Part shown: one piece after another, positions 10,330-17,627 of the stretch
How the letters are laid out: every line of letters starts with the position of its first letter
Numbering within the stretch: position 1 is the stretch's first letter
The notes under the pieces: model-generated
The model's database searches: none
Told to the model about the DNA's origin: nothing
The model's input: the letters and a program-made list of their open reading frames with translations, nothing else
Source: a virus
Taxonomy: Duplodnaviria; Caudoviricetes
Length of the DNA stretch: 64,000 nucleotides
Reading direction: 5' to 3' (one strand)
Virus record (IMG/VR): IMGVR_UViG_3300014205_000011
Location: 24,246-88,245 of that record
Translations under genes and position numbers: made by a program

Positions 10330-10562
10330 TATATGTTTATTGTGATATTTTTAAAATTATGTTCTACTATTGTTACTACTAAGCCATTACCTGTGTCACC
10401 ACTAGTATAAGGCTTTATCTGAGTATCTTCCACTACCCATATCTGAGATAATGGATATGAAAGGGCTTTACGTAATTGATGTGGTGTATCATGTATAATA
10501 GTTACATCATCTATACCTGTTAATATAGGTTTGTATTGTTCTTTAAACTTCTCTATGTTCAT
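10329..10562 (-). CDS. Hypothetical protein
   Basis: 77 aa, abuts neighbours. Confidence 0.55.
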   Translation of the reverse strand: MNIEKFKEQYKPILTGIDDVTIIHDTPHQLRKALSYPLSQIWVVEDTQIKPYTSGDTGNGLVVTIVEHNFKNITINI

Positions 10563-10764
10563 ACTTAGTGTCTATTATTAGTTTAGCTAAAGTAAAAGGT
10601 AAAAACATTTCAAAATCTCCACACCATAATATTCTTGTTCCTTTATATAAAAATCTATTAGTAAGATCTCTTTCAATAAAAACACTATTAACATTTATAG
10701 AATAATGTTCAGTATTACTTCTAGTTCTTTTATATAATTCTGCTACTTTATCTTTGTCTGTCAT
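10543..10764 (-). CDS. LFxP-motif microprotein
   Basis: 73 aa; EMFLPFTLAKL. Confidence 0.7.
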   Translation of the reverse strand: MTDKDKVAELYKRTRSNTEHYSINVNSVFIERDLTNRFLYKGTRILWCGDFEMFLPFTLAKLIIDTKYEHREV

Positions 10765-10970
10765 AATGTTAATGATTTAGCTAAATGATATGGAAAAAAT
10801 AGTGCTAGTTCATCTTGGTATAGTAAGTAATACTTTTTATCTGCCCCCATAAACCCTACTACATCTTCTCCAGTAAAATGCATGTATTCATCTTCATTTG
10901 CACACTCAATAGCATCCCCCCAAGTAATAATAGGTTGTAATCTAAGTAGTACTTCTTCTACTTTCATCAT
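10761..10970 (-). CDS. LFxP-motif microprotein
   Basis: 69 aa; ALFFPYHLAKS. Confidence 0.7.
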   Translation of the reverse strand: MMKVEEVLLRLQPIITWGDAIECANEDEYMHFTGEDVVGFMGADKKYYLLYQDELALFFPYHLAKSLTL

Positions 10971-11191
10971 ATACTTTTACTGCTTCTAAACTCATTTTCA
11001 TATATTGATTTGAATAGTGAATATGGTAAAAATATATTAACATCATGATACCAATATTGTATAGTTTCATTGTTAATAACAATGTTAAAATGTACAATAC
11101 TTTTTAAACCTTGCCCATGAAGTTTATAAAATGTAGAAATTGTATCTTCAGAATCTTTAACACCAAGTCTAACTAAATCATTTTGTATCAT
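10967..11191 (-). CDS. LFxP-motif microprotein
   Basis: 74 aa; NIFLPYSLFKS. Confidence 0.7.
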   Translation of the reverse strand: MIQNDLVRLGVKDSEDTISTFYKLHGQGLKSIVHFNIVINNETIQYWYHDVNIFLPYSLFKSIYENEFRSSKSI

Positions 11192-11424
11192 ACTTTAACT
11201 ATTAAATTATAAGGAAGAAATAAACTATATTCATATGTGTATAATTTATATACTTTATAATCAAGTCTAAAAATATTCCACGCTTTCCCATTTTTTAAAT
11301 CATATGATTTAGCCTGAGTAACTAGATGATTTACTGTGTAAGGATAATCTTTATACTCTTTATATCTGTCACTAAGTAACCTATCTATAATAGATTGATA
11401 CAATTTTACATTTAAAGTTCCCAT
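11188..11424 (-). CDS. LFxP-motif microprotein
   Basis: 78 aa; SLFLPYNL. Confidence 0.7.
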   Translation of the reverse strand: MGTLNVKLYQSIIDRLLSDRYKEYKDYPYTVNHLVTQAKSYDLKNGKAWNIFRLDYKVYKLYTYEYSLFLPYNLIVKV

Positions 11425-12032
11425 AACTTATATTGTTGAATAACTTCTCTATTATCATGAATAAAATAAAACACCATTTTTCTATCTTCTATATTTTCTA
11501 TAGGGGTATATAATGGGCCACTTCCAGGTTTAGTAATATATCTAATAGAATCATCTGGTATTTTACCTTCTGAAACTAATAAGTCATTAAACACTTTAGA
11601 ATATATCACACCAAAGTTTTCAATGTCCCAATTATTTCTACCAGGTACTTGATATATCTCACATTCTATAATAATGGGCAAAGTTGTAATAATAGGTACT
11701 TGTTGAACATAAGGAAGTAAAAACTTTTTAAGTCCGTTTACTATATTCATTCTTACAGAATAGTTACCTGCATAAATAAATTGGTTATTAATAGCTTGAT
11801 ACTTAGGTGTTCCTGCACTCTTAGCATTAGCTACTATTCTATTACCATTTTCATTTATGAGATACCCTTCTGTGTTGAATTTGTAGTTCTTGTATTTTTT
11901 AGGAATTTTAGTCTTTCTAAGCAATCCTGGGTATTTGCTGTAGAAGATTTCTCTCCTCTTCTGGCTGACTAATACCTTGGTTATGAACTGGGGTATTGTC
12001 AGAGTATAAAATGGCTCTTGATTCTGCTTCAC
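11412..12032 (-). CDS. RusA-like Holliday junction resolvase
   Basis: WDIENF...KVFNDLLVSEGKIPDDSIRYI matches the RusA acidic motifs. Confidence 0.7.
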   Translation of the reverse strand: MKQNQEPFYTLTIPQFITKVLVSQKRREIFYSKYPGLLRKTKIPKKYKNYKFNTEGYLINENGNRIVANAKSAGTPKYQAINNQFIYAGNYSVRMNIVNGLKKFLLPYVQQVPIITTLPIIIECEIYQVPGRNNWDIENFGVIYSKVFNDLLVSEGKIPDDSIRYITKPGSGPLYTPIENIEDRKMVFYFIHDNREVIQQYKLWEL

Positions 12033-12672
12033 TCATTCTCTTTCTCTTTTGGTTTATAAATTCTTTTAATTCATTTGTAGATGCCTGTCTATCTTTAGTA
12101 AGCTTATGTTCACTTGTTTTAATTAATACACATTTAGGTTCTCTAATTTCTACATCAAAGTAATTATTTTGAAAATCTTTAATTAATGTTTCAAAATAAG
12201 GAAATATTTTTATTGCGTTAGGATGAAATACAAATTTATACATGCGTATATCTAAATTAGTTTGTATGTTACCATAACAATAGTTAATGTATTCTTCTAC
12301 TTTATCTTCTTTTATTAACACAGTCATAAGCATACAATATTGGTCAAGTGTATATCTATGTTGCATAAACCCCCATAAATAATTAACTCTTAATAAAAAA
12401 TCATAAGGTGAGATATATTTAAACTCTCCATCAGATGTTTTAATTCTACTAGTAGATTGATGGTTAGATAAATAAGGAATTACAAAATAATCTTTATTTA
12501 TTCCTATTTGCATTTTACTTGATTCAATACTATTATGAATACTTAAAACATTTACATAACCTTCTTCTTCATTTTTAAATAATATTCCATTTTGAAAATT
12601 AATACATATATTAATAGAAGGGTAAACATATTTTTCAAAACTAACATCATGTTGTTTATTTACTAATATCAT
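11917..12672 (-). CDS. Uncharacterised protein at the end of the Ubl operon
   Basis: 251 aa, overlaps the E1 gene end; no family recognised. Confidence 0.6.
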   Translation of the reverse strand: MILVNKQHDVSFEKYVYPSINICINFQNGILFKNEEEGYVNVLSIHNSIESSKMQIGINKDYFVIPYLSNHQSTSRIKTSDGEFKYISPYDFLLRVNYLWGFMQHRYTLDQYCMLMTVLIKEDKVEEYINYCYGNIQTNLDIRMYKFVFHPNAIKIFPYFETLIKDFQNNYFDVEIREPKCVLIKTSEHKLTKDRQASTNELKEFINQKRKRMSEAESRAILYSDNTPVHNQGISQPEEERNLLQQIPRIA

Positions 12673-13387
12673 AATACATGCTTATCATTTCAAGTTTAAG
12701 ATTAGGTAAAGGGCAAATAGGTTTCTTATATACAAAATTAGTAAGGTAATTTGTAAATGAGTTAACCATATAGGCAGATATTAAGTAAGCATAATGAGTA
12801 GTTATCTTTAAAGTACAACTACCATCTACACCTTCAGAATCGTCAAATAGTGACTTTCTGTATTCATCAATTGTATCTTTGGTTACAATGAATATATCCA
12901 TAGTCCCATATAATATTCTACCATCTATAAAAACACAAGGAGTACTACCATCATTAGTAATAGCTTCTTGTACCCATGATTCAAACATGTCTTTTCTAGC
13001 TTTCATAGAGTCAAAACATGAAAAACATATGGATTCTATTGGAGAATCTTCAGTAAATAATTCATTTTTAGCTGTTACATTATCTTCACCTGAAAAACTA
13101 GCACACAACTCTTTAATAGCATCTACTTTAGGCATACCTAAATGTTTCATGTGATAGCCCTGTGCTCCTAAGTTAACAGTATCTACAGAATCATTATCCC
13201 ATATAGTAAGTTGATGTCCATATCTAGATAATATCATAGCTATGTGTGATCCAGTTGCTCCAGCCCCTCCTATAGTTATAGGATAAAATTTACCAAACCA
13301 AGGCGCATCTTTATACCTGATATTTTTCTCTTCGTAATTAGGCTCCAACTTGATTTGGGAAGGCATCGTTATATTTGGTGAATTCAT
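12656..13387 (-). CDS. ThiF/E1-like ubiquitin-activating enzyme
   Basis: IGGAGATGS, WDNDSVDTVNLGAQ, CFDSMKAR, FIDGR, candidate catalytic Cys in GSCT. Confidence 0.9.
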   Translation of the reverse strand: MNSPNITMPSQIKLEPNYEEKNIRYKDAPWFGKFYPITIGGAGATGSHIAMILSRYGHQLTIWDNDSVDTVNLGAQGYHMKHLGMPKVDAIKELCASFSGEDNVTAKNELFTEDSPIESICFSCFDSMKARKDMFESWVQEAITNDGSTPCVFIDGRILYGTMDIFIVTKDTIDEYRKSLFDDSEGVDGSCTLKITTHYAYLISAYMVNSFTNYLTNFVYKKPICPLPNLKLEMISMYYDISK

Positions 13388-14564
13388 TTATTTCTTTCTC
13401 CATTTCTTTTTTAAGATACTCTTTATAATAATTTTTTACATCATCTCTTGGTTGTCCTAAATCAACTTCAGTCATACCATGATAAATAGAATGATAAAAG
13501 AAACAAGTATATGCAGTATATAACAAAGGATCTGCTTGTGGTGACATTTTTGCCCTTATTTCATATATTGTATCATAATGAATAAAATATAAGTCTAACG
13601 CTTCATCTACAGCTTGTTTCAATTTTCCATCTTTTCTAAGTTGAAATATTGATTCTTGTTTAGCTTCTCTAATTTCTTCCATTATAGTATCTACAACATC
13701 ATAGTTAATAGAATATAAACTTGTTGTTTGTTTTAACCTAAACAAATCACACATCATTAAAGCAGGTTTAGTTTTATGTTTTGTATACATTTTATACTCA
13801 ACAAGTGTTGCTTGGAGATCATCAGGAAGCTTAATAATAGTTTTCAAAGGATCTTTCCCAATCGTCATACCAGTCTGAGGATAAGTAACTTTGGAAGGTA
13901 AAACTATTGGGGTTTTGAACTTTTTTTTCAGTGCCTCTGCTTTCTTTTTAAATACATCGTCTATTTGAATTTCTTCAGTTTCATATAATACTTTACAATC
14001 ATAATAATGTAATACATCTTTTTCTACTTTAGTAGTTACTTTTGTTTCTTTAGTAACAAAGTTTGTTACCCTAGCTATGTGATTAGTAACATCTGCATTG
14101 TAACATAACCTAGCTATAGCTTCCCATTTGTTATTTACAATTAAACTTACATAAAAAGGAAATATCTTACAAGAGTCTGTAATTTCTTCATTATCTGGCC
14201 CTGAAAAGAACACTCCTGTTGATACATGTGTATGTATAAATCCTCTATTAACTAATCCTTTAACAAAATCAGGATTATAAGTATATATATCTTCTGCGTG
14301 TTCTTGAAGATCTTCATAATCAAATGCCATACCTTTAGCATAGTTTATAGGCAACATATCATGTACATTTATAGTACATTCATGAGGATCTTTACTATCT
14401 GAACTCCAATATATTACTCCAGACCATTCATTACCTGGATGATCTTTATGCAAATATTGAATTTGATTCTGTAGTTTAATTGATAACACCAAAGTAGGTG
14501 TCCCAATTAATTTTACTGCTGATACTTCTTTTTTGGCAGAAGTCGCTGTTGTAGTAGTCATCAC
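13338..14564 (-). CDS. JAB/MPN+ (JAMM) metallo-isopeptidase
   Basis: EWSG plus exact H-x-H-x7-S-x2-D (HTHVSTGVFFSGPD). Confidence 0.85.
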   Translation of the reverse strand: MMTTTTATSAKKEVSAVKLIGTPTLVLSIKLQNQIQYLHKDHPGNEWSGVIYWSSDSKDPHECTINVHDMLPINYAKGMAFDYEDLQEHAEDIYTYNPDFVKGLVNRGFIHTHVSTGVFFSGPDNEEITDSCKIFPFYVSLIVNNKWEAIARLCYNADVTNHIARVTNFVTKETKVTTKVEKDVLHYYDCKVLYETEEIQIDDVFKKKAEALKKKFKTPIVLPSKVTYPQTGMTIGKDPLKTIIKLPDDLQATLVEYKMYTKHKTKPALMMCDLFRLKQTTSLYSINYDVVDTIMEEIREAKQESIFQLRKDGKLKQAVDEALDLYFIHYDTIYEIRAKMSPQADPLLYTAYTCFFYHSIYHGMTEVDLGQPRDDVKNYYKEYLKKEMEKEINEFTKYNDAFPNQVGA

Positions 14565-15915
14565 TATATAATTTTAATACGTTTGTTATTTGTGTTCTTA
14601 TTTTGTTTTTTAACTGATTGTAAATATCTATATAAACTTGATCTGATATTGCATTATTTTCTTCTATTTTTAACCAAGCTTTTTCAAATTCTATATCTTC
14701 TTCTTCTACTGGTAAAAAAGATAAAGGTAGTTGAATATCACCAAATTTTGCTGAAAGACCTTCTACATCATATTTATCTTCAAATAACTTAACAGGAGAT
14801 TTAAACTTTTTAGACATTAACTGTGTAGTTGTTGGCATATAATCAAAACATAATTTATTCACTACTCCTTTAATATCATACTGTTCATCAAATGTAATTT
14901 GAAGATTTGAAGCAACATATACTATTTTAGTTATACATTCCATAATATCCAATCCTCTAGCAATTAAAGCATTGGCTACAGCATTAGTATTTATTGAATT
15001 ATTTGAACCAGTTTCTCTATGTGACAATGCTTGTTTTATGTTAACATAAGGCCCCCCTTCAAGTGATTCATAGCTTACATAGTCACACAAATGATACAAA
15101 AATGAAGTTAATACTACAGGTTTAAATTCTCTACATAAATTACCCCATAATTGAGTAATGGCAGAGTCGCCTAAACAAAAAGCATTATAACTACCATGAG
15201 AATTACTCACACTTAAATGTGAATGTAAATATAAATAATTATTAATTATATCAGAAGAATTAAATGTAACTCTAGTACCATTAACACTACCTACAGCAGC
15301 ACATTTATCATTTGATACTACTCTAATCTTAACCAATAAATCTCTAATTATTTTAAAATGTTTTTTTGAGTTAGTAATAATTACTTTAGGAAACTTAATG
15401 TAAAAGTCTGCTGTATAAGGATATGTATCAGTTACAGTATAAGCATAATTACCTTCACCAAATATACTAGAAGCATCTTTTATAAAATATTCAACAGCAT
15501 CTTCTATTCTTTTCTTAGCTGTTTTAACATCTATAAATTTTATAAGTGAACCAAGAGCTGTTATTTGATGATAATGAAAAGTATTATAAGCAAATTTGTT
15601 AATAATTTTAATTCTACTAAGCACATCTTGTATAAACACTGCTGTTAATTTAGAACTTGTTTCTGCAGTAAAAAATAAAATATCATATTTATCTGTAGTA
15701 ATTCTGTCATAATAATAATATCTAATATCTGATAAAATTCTATCACTAAAATTACTAATGTCTATTTCTAATTCATTTAAAGCATCATTAGTATTTGTTA
15801 TCATAGAATTTTTCCACAATACATATTGCATATAGCCTAAGTTATCTACAGCTTTTTTTACTTCATCAATATTTTTTAATTTTAGTTCATCTAACCGTTT
15901 TGTATCTATAATCAT
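14476..15915 (-). CDS. Prokaryotic E2-like conjugating enzyme domain protein
   Basis: YLHSHL...AFCLGDS...YESLEGGPY resembles the E2 HPN...CL core; lies between Ubl and JAB. Confidence 0.7.
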   Translation of the reverse strand: MIIDTKRLDELKLKNIDEVKKAVDNLGYMQYVLWKNSMITNTNDALNELEIDISNFSDRILSDIRYYYYDRITTDKYDILFFTAETSSKLTAVFIQDVLSRIKIINKFAYNTFHYHQITALGSLIKFIDVKTAKKRIEDAVEYFIKDASSIFGEGNYAYTVTDTYPYTADFYIKFPKVIITNSKKHFKIIRDLLVKIRVVSNDKCAAVGSVNGTRVTFNSSDIINNYLYLHSHLSVSNSHGSYNAFCLGDSAITQLWGNLCREFKPVVLTSFLYHLCDYVSYESLEGGPYVNIKQALSHRETGSNNSINTNAVANALIARGLDIMECITKIVYVASNLQITFDEQYDIKGVVNKLCFDYMPTTTQLMSKKFKSPVKLFEDKYDVEGLSAKFGDIQLPLSFLPVEEEDIEFEKAWLKIEENNAISDQVYIDIYNQLKNKIRTQITNVLKLYSDDYYNSDFCQKRSISSKINWDTYFGVIN

Positions 15916-15930
15916 ATTTTAAAATTAAAT

Positions 15931-15956
15931 AACTAGGAGAACGAAATCTCCTAGTT
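15931..15956 (-). terminator. Hairpin between the Ubl and E2 genes
   Basis: Perfect 10-bp stem AACTAGGAGA/TCTCCTAGTT, then ATTTAATTTT. Confidence 0.65.
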
Positions 15957-15974
15957 ATATGATTAATTAGTGCC

Positions 15975-16223
15975 TTATATAGCACCTTTATGTTTATCTT
16001 CTACTAGGTATATCATGATACCATCACCATTAGGCAATACATCACTAGTTTTCAATACCCATTTATCAGTACCTGTAGTCCATTGTGTACCCATTACAGC
16101 TTTAGTATTAGCATATTGAGGATATTTATCTAAAAATTCTCCCCATGTAGTTATACTGTCATCAATTACACAATCTGTAGGAGCTCCACCAGCTCTACTA
16201 TCTACCATCATTATTGTTCTCAT
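15975..16223 (-). CDS. Ubiquitin-like (beta-grasp) modifier candidate
   Basis: 82 aa; beta-beta-alpha-beta pattern (TIMMVD, ITTWGEFL, DVLP, IMIYLV); ends KHKG-AI; first gene of the E2/JAB/E1 cluster. Confidence 0.65.
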   Translation of the reverse strand: MRTIMMVDSRAGGAPTDCVIDDSITTWGEFLDKYPQYANTKAVMGTQWTTGTDKWVLKTSDVLPNGDGIMIYLVEDKHKGAI

Positions 16224-17107
16224 ATCAATTCTTTTAATTTGTTTGTTGTTTGTTCTAATCCATAGTCTATCACCATATCCGTAAAGTCTTTGGTATATGG
16301 TGATACTATAGAGTTAATATTGTACTTATCAGTATAATGTACAGCTCCTTTCATTCCTGGCCCATCATTATCAAAATTCACATACATATCAAACCTGTTA
16401 AGTAAGTACCTAACAGTTTGTTCACGTATATGAATCATTTCACTAGCAGGAGCTATAGAATTATAGCCAATTGATTTTAAAAACATCACATCTTTTAAGC
16501 TTTTAGTGATGATAAGCTTAGGATTAGTAAAATCTAATCCTTGTAATCCTTGTATATTACACCCTTTAGATAAAAACTTAGGTTTACAATAAGGGAGATA
16601 TATTTTCCAACCTTTACTAAAAAAGTATATAAAAGCAAGATTGTCTTTATAGTCCCTAAATATTACATTATTTCCTTTATATATCAATCTAATAGGATAT
16701 ACATCATACATGTTAAGTATGTGTTTATTTATATTATATTTAGCCCAATAATCTATATGCTTACTCTGCCACTCACTTATTTTATATTCTATATTATTAT
16801 CACTCTCCTCATATATTGGGACTATAGTTTTGTTTACTATGGTAATATTAAGTTGCGAATATATTAAATCAACAGCTTGCCCATAATTTACTTTATAAAG
16901 CAATTTTACAAACTGCCATATATTACCATTCTCTCCACAACCAAAACATCTAAATCTATTATTATCAACTAATAAACTAGGGGTTTTTTCTTTGTGAAAA
17001 GGACATAATACTTTTCCTTTAGAAGTACCTGCATATTTATTAAACAGCATAGCTTCTGTAACATTAGATAAAATTTTATCTCTTTTATTTCTAATGTCTA
17101 TGATCAA
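16220..17107 (-). CDS. DNA primase (CHC2 zinc finger plus Toprim)
   Basis: CPFHKEKTPS, CFGCG, ITKSLKDVM, FDNDGPG. Confidence 0.9.
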   Translation of the reverse strand: MIIDIRNKRDKILSNVTEAMLFNKYAGTSKGKVLCPFHKEKTPSLLVDNNRFRCFGCGENGNIWQFVKLLYKVNYGQAVDLIYSQLNITIVNKTIVPIYEESDNNIEYKISEWQSKHIDYWAKYNINKHILNMYDVYPIRLIYKGNNVIFRDYKDNLAFIYFFSKGWKIYLPYCKPKFLSKGCNIQGLQGLDFTNPKLIITKSLKDVMFLKSIGYNSIAPASEMIHIREQTVRYLLNRFDMYVNFDNDGPGMKGAVHYTDKYNINSIVSPYTKDFTDMVIDYGLEQTTNKLKELI

Positions 17108-17120
17108 AGTTACCCCCTAA

Positions 17121-17627
17121 CTAGAAAGGAAGGTCATTTTCTGGGTTAGGTTGCCCAGCATCTGAATCTGTAGTAGATTCTAATTTAGCAACTTCTGCTA
17201 TAGTTTCTTTTTGTTTAGCGCTAAATTTAAGCGTATTACCATATTCTTCAAGTCTAATAAAATTAGCAAATGGGCAATTATAATACACTTTACCATTAGA
17301 ACCACTAATTGTAGGTACTAACATAAAAGATACTTTTTTACCTACTAATTGCTGAAACAATGATGATTCAACTCTTTCTGCAAGATCTGAATCCATCAAT
17401 GATGTCCACAATTCTTTTAGCCTTGAAACAGCTTTTTCACTCACATAGAATTTCTCATAATGAGTACCGGCTTTAGTTTCAAACAATACTCCTAAGTAAG
17501 GACTAGGTAACACATTACCATCTTTGTCTTGTGTAACTTCATCTACTTTAGCAATTACACCATTGTAAATACCAGCTTCCTGTATATAAGGACGCTTCAC
17601 TTCTTCATTACCAATGTTTATATCCAT
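17121..17627 (-). CDS. ssDNA-binding protein (putative)
   Basis: OB-like; acidic tail ending NDLPF. Confidence 0.65.
   Translation of the reverse strand: MDINIGNEEVKRPYIQEAGIYNGVIAKVDEVTQDKDGNVLPSPYLGVLFETKAGTHYEKFYVSEKAVSRLKELWTSLMDSDLAERVESSLFQQLVGKKVSFMLVPTISGSNGKVYYNCPFANFIRLEEYGNTLKFSAKQKETIAEVAKLESTTDSDAGQPNPENDLPF

Follow-up and report, generated by a model that had tools for sequence, protein, structure and literature searches.

Does a lytic phage carry a ubiquitin-like protein (Ubl) conjugation pathway of its own? The question is raised by a cassette of genes that a lytic crAss-like phage has in its replication module, contained in the window (the whole stretch of DNA that was analysed, 64,000 nucleotides), whose source is a phage genome of 88 kb, complete and with terminal repeats. 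The earlier note had described a complete operon of Ubl, E2, JAB, E1 and orphan genes lying between primase and RusA, and both neighbours are indeed recovered: on one side the DNA primase gene (16220–17107, minus strand), with CHC2 zinc finger and Toprim (Pfam Zn_ribbon_DnaG, 3.2e-16; PHROG DNA primase, 5.8e-21), and downstream a gene for a RusA-like Holliday junction resolvase (11412–12032, minus strand; PHROG 4632, 1.4e-9). All ORFs of the cassette are on the minus strand at the coordinates first assigned to them. The primase and Ubl genes overlap by 4 nt, the E2-like and JAB genes by 89 nt, the JAB and E1 genes by 50 nt and the E1 and orphan genes by 17 nt; the claim of four co-oriented, mostly overlapping genes needs correction in that the Ubl and E2-like genes do not overlap but have 59 nt between them. 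The immediate neighbours of the cassette include no annotated CD-NTase or effector gene.

We consider it rather likely that this cassette is a virus-encoded Ubl activation and conjugation system of Bil/Bub-like build. The 88 related loci examined all show the order Ubl, E2-like, JAB, E1 that is found here behind the primase gene, and 77 of them have a primase ahead of the cassette. As the motif residues are invariant or nearly so in 63–70 non-identical homologues and the gene order is kept throughout, the cassette is more than a chance assembly. At the DNA level a search of 50,697 phage records with the 5.8-kb block as query returned zero matches, and neither NCBIfam nor PADLOC recognised the Ubl, E2-like, JAB or orphan protein.

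The fifth gene stands apart. This orphan (11917–12672, minus strand, 251 aa) has no Pfam or PHROG match either, the ESM Atlas gave nothing usable for it, and its only detectable similarity is a 35-residue C-terminal match to the counterpart gene in the closest locus (E 3e-4). The position after E1 is filled by another family, gene 5, in 60/80 loci; the orphan was considered as a member of this family and rejected, as the gene-5 HMM does not match it. Thus, of the five-gene operon originally proposed, the four genes and their order stand, while the orphan is no conserved member of the cassette and a hairpin follows the Ubl gene.

That hairpin (15919–15958, minus strand), found by a terminator scan in the gap between the Ubl and E2-like genes, has a 12-bp perfect stem and a 6-nt loop followed by TTAATTTTAA, a T-rich tail. 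Its RNA fold has a predicted energy of –17.5 kcal/mol (z –5.6; none of 200 shuffles as stable), and a hairpin of at least 8 bp is found at the equivalent site in 56 of 61 distinct related loci, compared with 32/305 shuffles. It is terminator-like and divides the Ubl gene from the enzyme genes. On this ground the two parts may be separate transcription units, which counts against a conjugation system; if the parts do work together, the hairpin would hold the tag in excess over three translationally coupled enzymes.

The Ubl gene (15975–16223, minus strand) encodes an 82-aa protein of minimal form. Its fold is beta-grasp, the point on which the earlier note had made its reading depend, and TtuB and MoaD are among its structural matches; Pfam gave only scattered noise across all 65 family members. 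The family shares the motif K-x-K-[SA]-G, in which the Gly is present in 64/65 sequences. The window Ubl ends in K77-H78-K79-G80-A81-I82, with A81 filling the otherwise invariant Gly column and G80 one residue earlier; it alone among the 65 sequences has Ala there, an observation that counts against a conjugation system. The fold, length and KHKGAI end noted before are therefore correct, but by the alignment the homologous end is KGA|I and not KG|AI. Beyond the conserved Gly, family members carry 1–5 residues or, in most relatives, a long C-terminal tail of 54–221 aa, and in three loci (L032, L040 and L066) Ubl and tail are separate ORFs that break just after the Gly, as expected if processing occurs at that site. 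An HMM of the tail from the long forms found no match in the six frames of the window, a possible fusion to the E2-like N-terminus included. The Ubl would be made as a capped precursor, the cap being here the one residue past A81 and in most relatives the long tail, and would be trimmed at the conserved K-[SA]-G position by the JAB protein.

The JAB/JAMM metallopeptidase gene (13338–14564, minus strand, 408 aa) carries HTHVSTGVFFSGPD, the exact HxHx7Sx2D motif reported previously, and across the 63 sequences of its family H111, H113, S121 and D124 are invariant and E46 is nearly so. The JAB domain occupies the N-terminal ~170 aa, and the C-terminal half is helical and uncharacterised. Prok-JAB (PF14464) matches 40/63 family members at E ≤0.01 (best 2.5e-5); the window protein itself scores 15.3 bits (cut-off 25 bits, E 0.019), and an hmmsearch of the family profile against PDB sequences gave chance-level matches only.

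Between the Ubl and JAB genes, the slot of the E2 in Bil, the cassette encodes a protein (14476–15915, minus strand, 479 aa) with a UBC-like core at residues 126–300 (15016–15540) flanked by helical, poorly modelled regions. The AF2 model of residues 130–300 (pLDDT >90) comprises a1, a four-stranded meander, the loop with the His motif, the Cys and then a2–a3, a predicted UBC topology with the elements in the order of the E2 fold; the UBC fold to which the earlier note had tied its E2 assignment is accordingly predicted as a UBC-like topology. The HSH...FCLG motif named there is also present, as H231-S232-H233 and F246-C247-L248-G249. Across the family H231, S232, H233 and C247 show no or almost no variation, the invariant His-x-His and then the Cys lying in the loop after b4, and invariant residues of the core are H233, C247, G249, E283, S284, G287 and P289. 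In the re-aligned list of a structural search canonical E2s make up most entries and align over 127–139 of ~150 residues.

At the level of sequence the searches gave no link from the E2-like family to known E2s. Pfam gave no real match, only scattered noise, for the window protein or 64 family members; the Prok-E2_D model, run on the genome with E values up to 10 allowed, matched nothing; and profiles of the full family and of its core, run against PDB sequences with hmmsearch, gave chance-level matches and no E2. A word-indexed search returned 30 family members without Pfam domains except for one PF03003 entry, and an exhaustive profile search placed 3,336 clusters (50% identity) in the family at E ≤0.001. 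A bridge to known E2 families via remote homologues was tried and set aside, the best 150 of these clusters all having E ≤2.3e-40. As leads only, the ESM Atlas linked the core to a viral cluster (11% Prok-E2_D, score 0.85) and to a UQ_con model (TM 0.48).

An alternative is that there is no true E2, and that E1 and JAB alone act on the Ubl, by direct attachment via E1~Ubl or by a MccB/PaaA-like modification of the C-terminus, the 479-aa protein being a substrate, a scaffold or an unrelated alpha/beta-sandwich enzyme. However, the invariant Cys is exactly at the position of the E2 Cys with a conserved His motif ahead of it, as with HPN, E2s dominate the re-aligned structural list, and the gene occupies the slot of the E2 in Bil, so we regard this alternative as unlikely.

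The E1/ThiF-type gene (12656–13387, minus strand, 243 aa) encodes a protein matching PF00899 with 51.7 bits (cut-off 28.1 bits, E 8.7e-14). The family consists of minimal proteins of 220–284 aa with one adenylation domain, and its profile matches ThiF-type proteins, MccB, UBA5, UBA3, ThiF, SAE2, Cap2 and MoeB in the PDB. Across 70 sequences R24, G41, G43, D66, N72, Q76, K87, D126, R131, D155, R157 and C191 are invariant, a set in which every adenylation residue is present, with the Gly-rich ATP loop and the catalytic Asp and Arg residues. This agrees with the catalytic Cys in GSCT suggested earlier: C191 is the sole invariant cysteine, is part of this GSCT and lies 65 residues past the catalytic Asp, a spacing in agreement with that of ThiF, MoeB and UBA5. 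Judged by this spacing, C191 probably sits in the crossover loop. E1-like enzymes also act in sulfur transfer and peptide modification, MccB and PaaA standing high among the PDB matches of the family profile, which counts against a conjugation system.

A sulfur carrier reading would have the E1 adenylate the Ubl to yield a thiocarboxylate (as for ThiS, MoaD, TtuB or CysO) and the JAB only uncap it (like Mec+ or QbsD), with the Cys/His protein as a sulfur-using or relay enzyme that thiolates a nucleic acid or cofactor. Ubl, JAB and a minimal ThiF-like E1 are the classic sulfur-carrier trio (Iyer 2006, PMC1779556), and this reading is also in line with the TtuB and MoaD matches of the Ubl, with ThiF models giving the best, though sub-threshold, NCBIfam scores for the E1, and with the GenBank label of the E1, 'thiamine biosynthesis protein'. 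However, the E1 has no rhodanese domain, and searches for rhodanese, PP-loop ATPase and cysteine desulfurase at E up to 1 gave zero matches in the whole 88-kb genome, extending to its full length the earlier remark that no sulfur-transfer partner genes lie nearby; the same searches matched 13–14 of 14 control genomes, though host enzymes could supply the sulfur. Moreover, the fourth conserved protein has a UBC-like topology with a loop Cys and no known sulfurtransferase fold, and long Ubl tails and split Ubl/tail genes suit the precursor processing of a protein modifier. Together these points leave a sulfur carrier quite improbable.

The distribution of the cassette is virus-restricted. In IMG/VR the E1 gene is found on 377 contigs, and 74 phage records of GenBank have it too, among them crAss001-type and FpV4 phages, whereas a profile search of 185,579 species genomes with the E1 alignment found it in 2 contigs, both phage-like modules. 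Cultured phages with the cassette are crAss001, DAC15/DAC17 and Flavobacterium phage FpV4. It is absent in a Carjivirus crAssphage and in phi14:2 and is thus dispensable in some lineages. Its genes are currently labelled 'thiamine biosynthesis protein', 'metalloprotease domain' ('contains metalloprotease domain' in the crAss001-derived annotation of the JAB) or 'hypothetical'. A further reading is counter-defence, in which the JAB would strip conjugates made by host Bil, Bub or CBASS (Cap2), or the phage Ubl and E1 would compete with host systems, so that phage tagging is not the point. This would fit the patchy presence of the cassette across Crassvirales lineages, as is often seen with accessory counter-defence genes, and the fact that JAB peptidases undo the conjugation carried out against phages by Bil, Bub and type II CBASS (PMC10557695, PMC11601596). 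It is very unlikely, however, given that all four genes with intact catalytic residues occur together in every locus examined, where a peptidase-only role would need fewer, and that their site in the replication module is fixed across very divergent phages (capsid identity ≤31%), unlike typical hypervariable anti-defence loci.

Among the known bacterial conjugation systems Bil and Bub are the closest. BilABCD (bacterial ISG15-like, types I and II) corresponds to the operon classes that Iyer et al. 2006 named 6d/6C (PMC10557695, PMC1779556) and has the gene order Ubl-E2-DUB-E1 (PMC10557695). Both systems have four components in the same order, a Ubl family whose conserved C-terminal Gly is capped by few residues (the cap being taken off by the JAB in Bil), and an E1 and E2 that are both Cys-based, the E2 Cys having a conserved His close by; both lack an E3, and the Bil E2 has been proposed to select targets (PMC10557695). 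Cleavage after the conserved Gly has been shown for BilC (PMC10557695) and BubC (PMC11601596). In contrast, Bil has a large IAD-AAD-CYS protein as its E1 where the phage has a single adenylation domain, the phage E2-like and JAB proteins are 2–3 times larger with extra helical regions, most phage Ubls extend past the Gly in a long tail, no defence-system sequence model matches the phage Ubl, E2-like or JAB proteins, and the phage cassette is found in lytic phages rather than in bacterial defence islands.

Type I Bub (formerly 6E.1; BubAB, BubCD, BubE; PMC11601596) shares other features: a minimal, homodimeric-type E1 of the ThiF/UBA5 kind directly after the JAB, a non-canonical E2, and a Ubl made as a fusion, with JAB cleavage after the conserved Gly shown for Bub and probable for the phage cassette. 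Bub differs in using oxyester chemistry, with a Tyr in its E1 for the crossover-loop Cys and a Ser in its E2 (PMC11601596), whereas C191 and C247 of the phage proteins are invariant. Furthermore, Bub has its Ubl joined with the E2 and its JAB joined with the E1, whereas the phage genes are separate and the Ubl is fused to a tail that is not an E2; and the phage cassette has no BubE (DUF6527), as Pfam gives no match for the orphan or for 10 proteins encoded at position 5 in relatives. Type II CBASS Cap2/Cap3 differs, Cap2 being an E2-E1 fusion that conjugates a CD-NTase and not a beta-grasp Ubl. Among phages, the sole pairing of Ubl and JAB found in the literature searched is that of the lambdoid/T1 tail-assembly Ubl TAPI, which like the phage Ubl has a C-terminal domain after a conserved Gly, and the JAB-NlpC/P60 protein TAPK (Iyer 2006, PMC1779556); this pair lacks E1 and E2, belongs to a tail module instead of a replication module and comprises unrelated protein families. 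No paper describing the phage cassette was found, in agreement with the earlier remark that no characterised phage example was known.

In a conjugation pathway built from these proteins, once the JAB had trimmed the precursor, the minimal and probably homodimeric E1 would adenylate the exposed C-terminus of the Ubl and form a thioester on C191, from which the Ubl would be transferred to C247 of the E2-like protein. As no E3 is present, the large extra helical regions of the E2-like protein probably choose the target, and the Ubl would end on a lysine of some phage or host protein, with reversal by the same JAB.

In bacteria Ubl conjugation is now viewed as a weapon against phages (type II CBASS, Bil and probably Bub), and such kits have so far been studied solely as bacterial anti-phage defences; similar predicted machinery with a fixed place in the replication module of lytic phages reverses this picture. 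To us the chances appear evenly balanced that a large crAss-like clade, including crAss001-type Bacteroides phages and FpV4, operates a complete Ubl pathway while infecting and attaches the tag covalently to phage or host proteins, which would make it the first virus-owned prokaryotic Ubl cascade and a third architecture beside Bil and Bub, one that combines a minimal E1 of the Cys type with a giant E2 and a Ubl freed from a tail fusion. The carrier phages are members of a virus group that ranks among the most abundant in the human gut, with relatives in fish-pathogen, marine and freshwater settings, and the existence of cultured members (crAss001, DAC15/DAC17, FpV4) makes direct testing possible. 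The finding raises the questions of what is tagged and for what purpose, be it replication control, host takeover or the countering of host Ubl defences, and of whether phages may have been a reservoir or vehicle for E1-E2-DUB systems in evolution.

By its sequence the phage is a divergent crAss-like lytic phage, as its terminase, portal and major capsid protein match crAss-type PHROGs and its capsid protein matched crAss-like phages alone in GenBank (crAss002, cr55_1, p-crAssphage relatives, phi14:2 and FpV4), at identities of at most 31%. The window covers 64 kb of one IMG/VR record (88,245 bp), which has direct terminal repeats and is rated 100% complete; GC is ∼29%. On the minus strand the primase gene (16220–17107) is followed by genes for the Ubl (82 aa, 15975–16223), the E2-like protein (479 aa, 14476–15915), JAB (408 aa, 13338–14564), E1 (243 aa, 12656–13387), an orphan (251 aa, 11917–12672) and RusA (11412–12032). 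All motifs quoted in the earlier note, which had proposed a complete phage Ubl conjugation operon here, were found in these reading frames.

The E1 matches Pfam ThiF over the cut-off (8.7e-14), and its family profile retrieves ThiF-type proteins, MccB, UBA5, TcdA, UBA3, ThiF, SAE2, Cap2 and MoeB from the PDB. Across 70 non-identical relatives the ATP-loop G41 and G43, R24, D66, K87, the catalytic D126, R131, D155 and R157 are invariant, as is C191, the Cys of GSCT previously put forward as catalytic. It is the sole invariant cysteine and lies 65 residues past the catalytic Asp, a spacing presumably comparable to that of ThiF, MoeB and UBA5. At 220–284 aa, the family is a minimal single-domain E1. 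The window JAB by itself reaches the Prok-JAB model at only E = 0.019, and 40 of 63 family members match it (best 2.5e-5). Within this set of 63, H111, H113, S121 and D124 never vary and E46 hardly does; the C-terminal 240 residues form an uncharacterised region.

Searches with the E2-like window protein, its 64-sequence family and its core gave no known-family match by sequence methods. AlphaFold2, given 64 sequences, models residues 130–300 with very high confidence and the two ends poorly; the core runs from a long helix through a four-stranded meander, a loop with Y229 and H231-S232-H233, and C247-x-G249 to two helices. In this model the order is that of UBC, with the His motif at the HPN place and the Cys at the E2 Cys place, and H233, C247, G249, E283, S284, G287 and P289 are invariant in the 64 family sequences. 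Structure searches back an E2 identity only moderately, Foldseek with the whole model returning many E2s at E 0.26–0.75. A UBC-like fold is best called likely but unproven: the motif (HSH...FCLG) and predicted core favour the E2-like protein originally proposed, while the structure matches are moderate and sequence methods silent. Because the evidence for an E2 is moderate, activation of the Ubl without a true E2 is possible. A sulfur-carrier role is weakened, as the fourth protein looks UBC-like and the whole genome lacks rhodanese, PP-loop ATPase and cysteine desulfurase, in line with the initial remark that sulfur-transfer partner genes are missing nearby. Counter-defence by deconjugation alone leaves the intact catalytic residues of all four genes unaccounted for.

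The 82-aa protein is beta-grasp-like, as first supposed: its AlphaFold2 model (65-sequence alignment; β-β-α-β-β-β, pLDDT 76, pTM 0.64, residues 78–82 a floppy end) has exclusively beta-grasp top matches in a Foldseek search of the PDB (DIX, Hub1, ubiquitin, SUMO, TtuB and Caldiarchaeum ubiquitin). The Gly of the family motif P-K-K-[TV]-K-[SA]-G occurs in 64 of 65 sequences, the exception being the window protein. Here the motif had been read correctly but its break, KHKG|AI, probably not; KHKGA|I is likelier because, once the K-x-K residues are aligned, A81 falls in the Gly column and G80 in that of [SA]. The Ubl occurs in three forms. Most commonly the N-terminal beta-grasp continues into a 54–221 aa tail, at whose end a helix plus G-[FLM] motif is frequent, Ubl and tail being one fused gene in most phages. 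About ten proteins, the window's included, end 1–5 residues past the Gly. Three related loci have a short Ubl ORF with a tail-like ORF just downstream (L032:3010–3500, L040:3209–3682 and L066:2835–3414), the break falling 1–5 codons past the conserved Gly; in L032 the tail-like ORF overlaps the last Ubl codons. Only that of L040 matches the tail HMM (E 6.7e-5), and those of L032 and L066 share a C-terminal ...ELG motif with the tail. Since the split ORFs break at this point, gene fission supports a putative cleavage of the Ubl just past the Gly.

The 59-nt gap 3′ of the window Ubl gene contains a perfect 12-bp hairpin with a T-rich run behind it (z −5.6). Of 61 distinct loci, 56 have a hairpin of 8 bp or more at the corresponding position, versus 10% of shuffles; it is conserved in position and not in sequence. 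Overlaps of 89, 50 and 17 nt suggest translational coupling of the enzyme genes. Together, the Ubl forms, positional hairpin and overlaps are consistent with a tag that would be produced in excess over its enzymes. On the same grounds the proposed operon may be two transcription units. The overlap of the E2-like 3′ and JAB 5′ ends (14476–14564 in the window) measures 60–125 nt in every locus inspected, including the equivalents in loci L001, L002 and L009, a length unusual for simple coupling.

A single gene family (166–461 aa), for which no Pfam match was found, follows E1 in 60 of 80 loci. Many members end in an acidic-hydrophobic tip like that of SSB, for instance DLPF, LPF or LW (examples are L002:6663–7751 and L003:7678–8571); tips in related phages include EDLPF, IDLPF, EPLPF, VDLPF and QVLW. 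The orphan's place in a complete operon is not sustained, as the family HMM did not detect it as a member and it shares a 35-residue C-terminal stretch, and nothing more, with its L009 counterpart. It overlaps RusA by 116 nt (92 nt in L009). Upstream of primase, a 168-aa protein (17121–17627, minus strand) has NDLPF at its C-terminus, likewise a tip of the SSB type. This protein and the tip-bearing position-5 proteins may dock onto SSB-tail-binding replication/repair proteins, and tip-bearing proteins could be an adaptor of the Ubl system. Directly downstream of RusA (10543–11424, minus strand), a row of four small ORFs (73, 69, 74 and 78 aa) share similar C-terminal motifs (LFLPYNL, IFLPYSL, LFFPYHL and MFLPFTL) and look like a tandem paralogue array.

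Bil operons have the order Ubl-E2-DUB-E1, Cys-based E1 and E2, no E3, and a Ubl whose conserved Gly is capped by at most 9 residues that BilC removes (PMC10557695). The phage cassette shares this gene order, but its E1 is minimal and single-domain whereas the Bil E1 is a large IAD-AAD-CYS protein (PMC10557695). Type I Bub has a minimal homodimeric E1 behind JAB, a Ubl fusion cleaved after Gly, Tyr and Ser oxyesters, and BubE (PMC11601596); in contrast, the phage E1 and E2-like proteins have invariant cysteines and the cassette is without DUF6527. Differing thus from Bil in its E1 and from Bub in its cysteines and missing DUF6527, the cassette is a third architecture among systems of this kind. 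In phages, Iyer et al. 2006 reported Ubl/JAB as a tail-assembly pair only (PMC1779556), and no description of the cassette was found in the literature searched. Public records label its genes ThiF or thiamine biosynthesis, 'metalloprotease domain', 'E1 enzyme family protein' or hypothetical.

Using tblastn, E1 was found in 74 GenBank phage records, namely Flavobacterium phages of the FpV4 type, phages of Bacteroides intestinalis DSM 108646 (which we take to be the host strain of crAss001), DAC15, DAC17 and several 'cr' metagenomic Crassvirales; an E1 pattern scan of IMG/VR gave 377 contigs. Of 88 related loci (82 from IMG/VR scans and 6 public phage records), iterated HMMs showed that all have E1 and JAB, 87 have the E2-like gene and 85 have the Ubl, and the synteny held throughout, with an invariable Ubl-E2like-JAB-E1 order mostly straight after primase. 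The E2-like core family comprises 3,336 clusters at 50% identity (E ≤0.001). E1 was found in cr111_1 and FpV4, and not in Carjivirus crAssphage (W01, MK069403.1, p-crAssphage-type) or Cellulophaga phage phi14:2 (W02, KC821624.1). Because E1 is missing from phi14:2 although it shares a subfamily, Asinivirinae, with the cassette-bearing cr111_1, the cassette appears to have been repeatedly lost.

Among 185,579 species genomes the E1 pattern occurs on two MAG contigs only. Since each carries the full primase-Ubl-E2like-JAB-E1 module, both are probably phage DNA binned with cellular genomes: L091 (JAZGEW010000157.1, 'Promethearchaeia archaeon' MAG) and L090 (Chitinophagales MAG) would be crAss-like phage contigs in Asgard archaeal and Bacteroidota MAGs, respectively. 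Binning of the L091 type is a trap when ubiquitin-system genes of Asgard archaea are inferred from bins.
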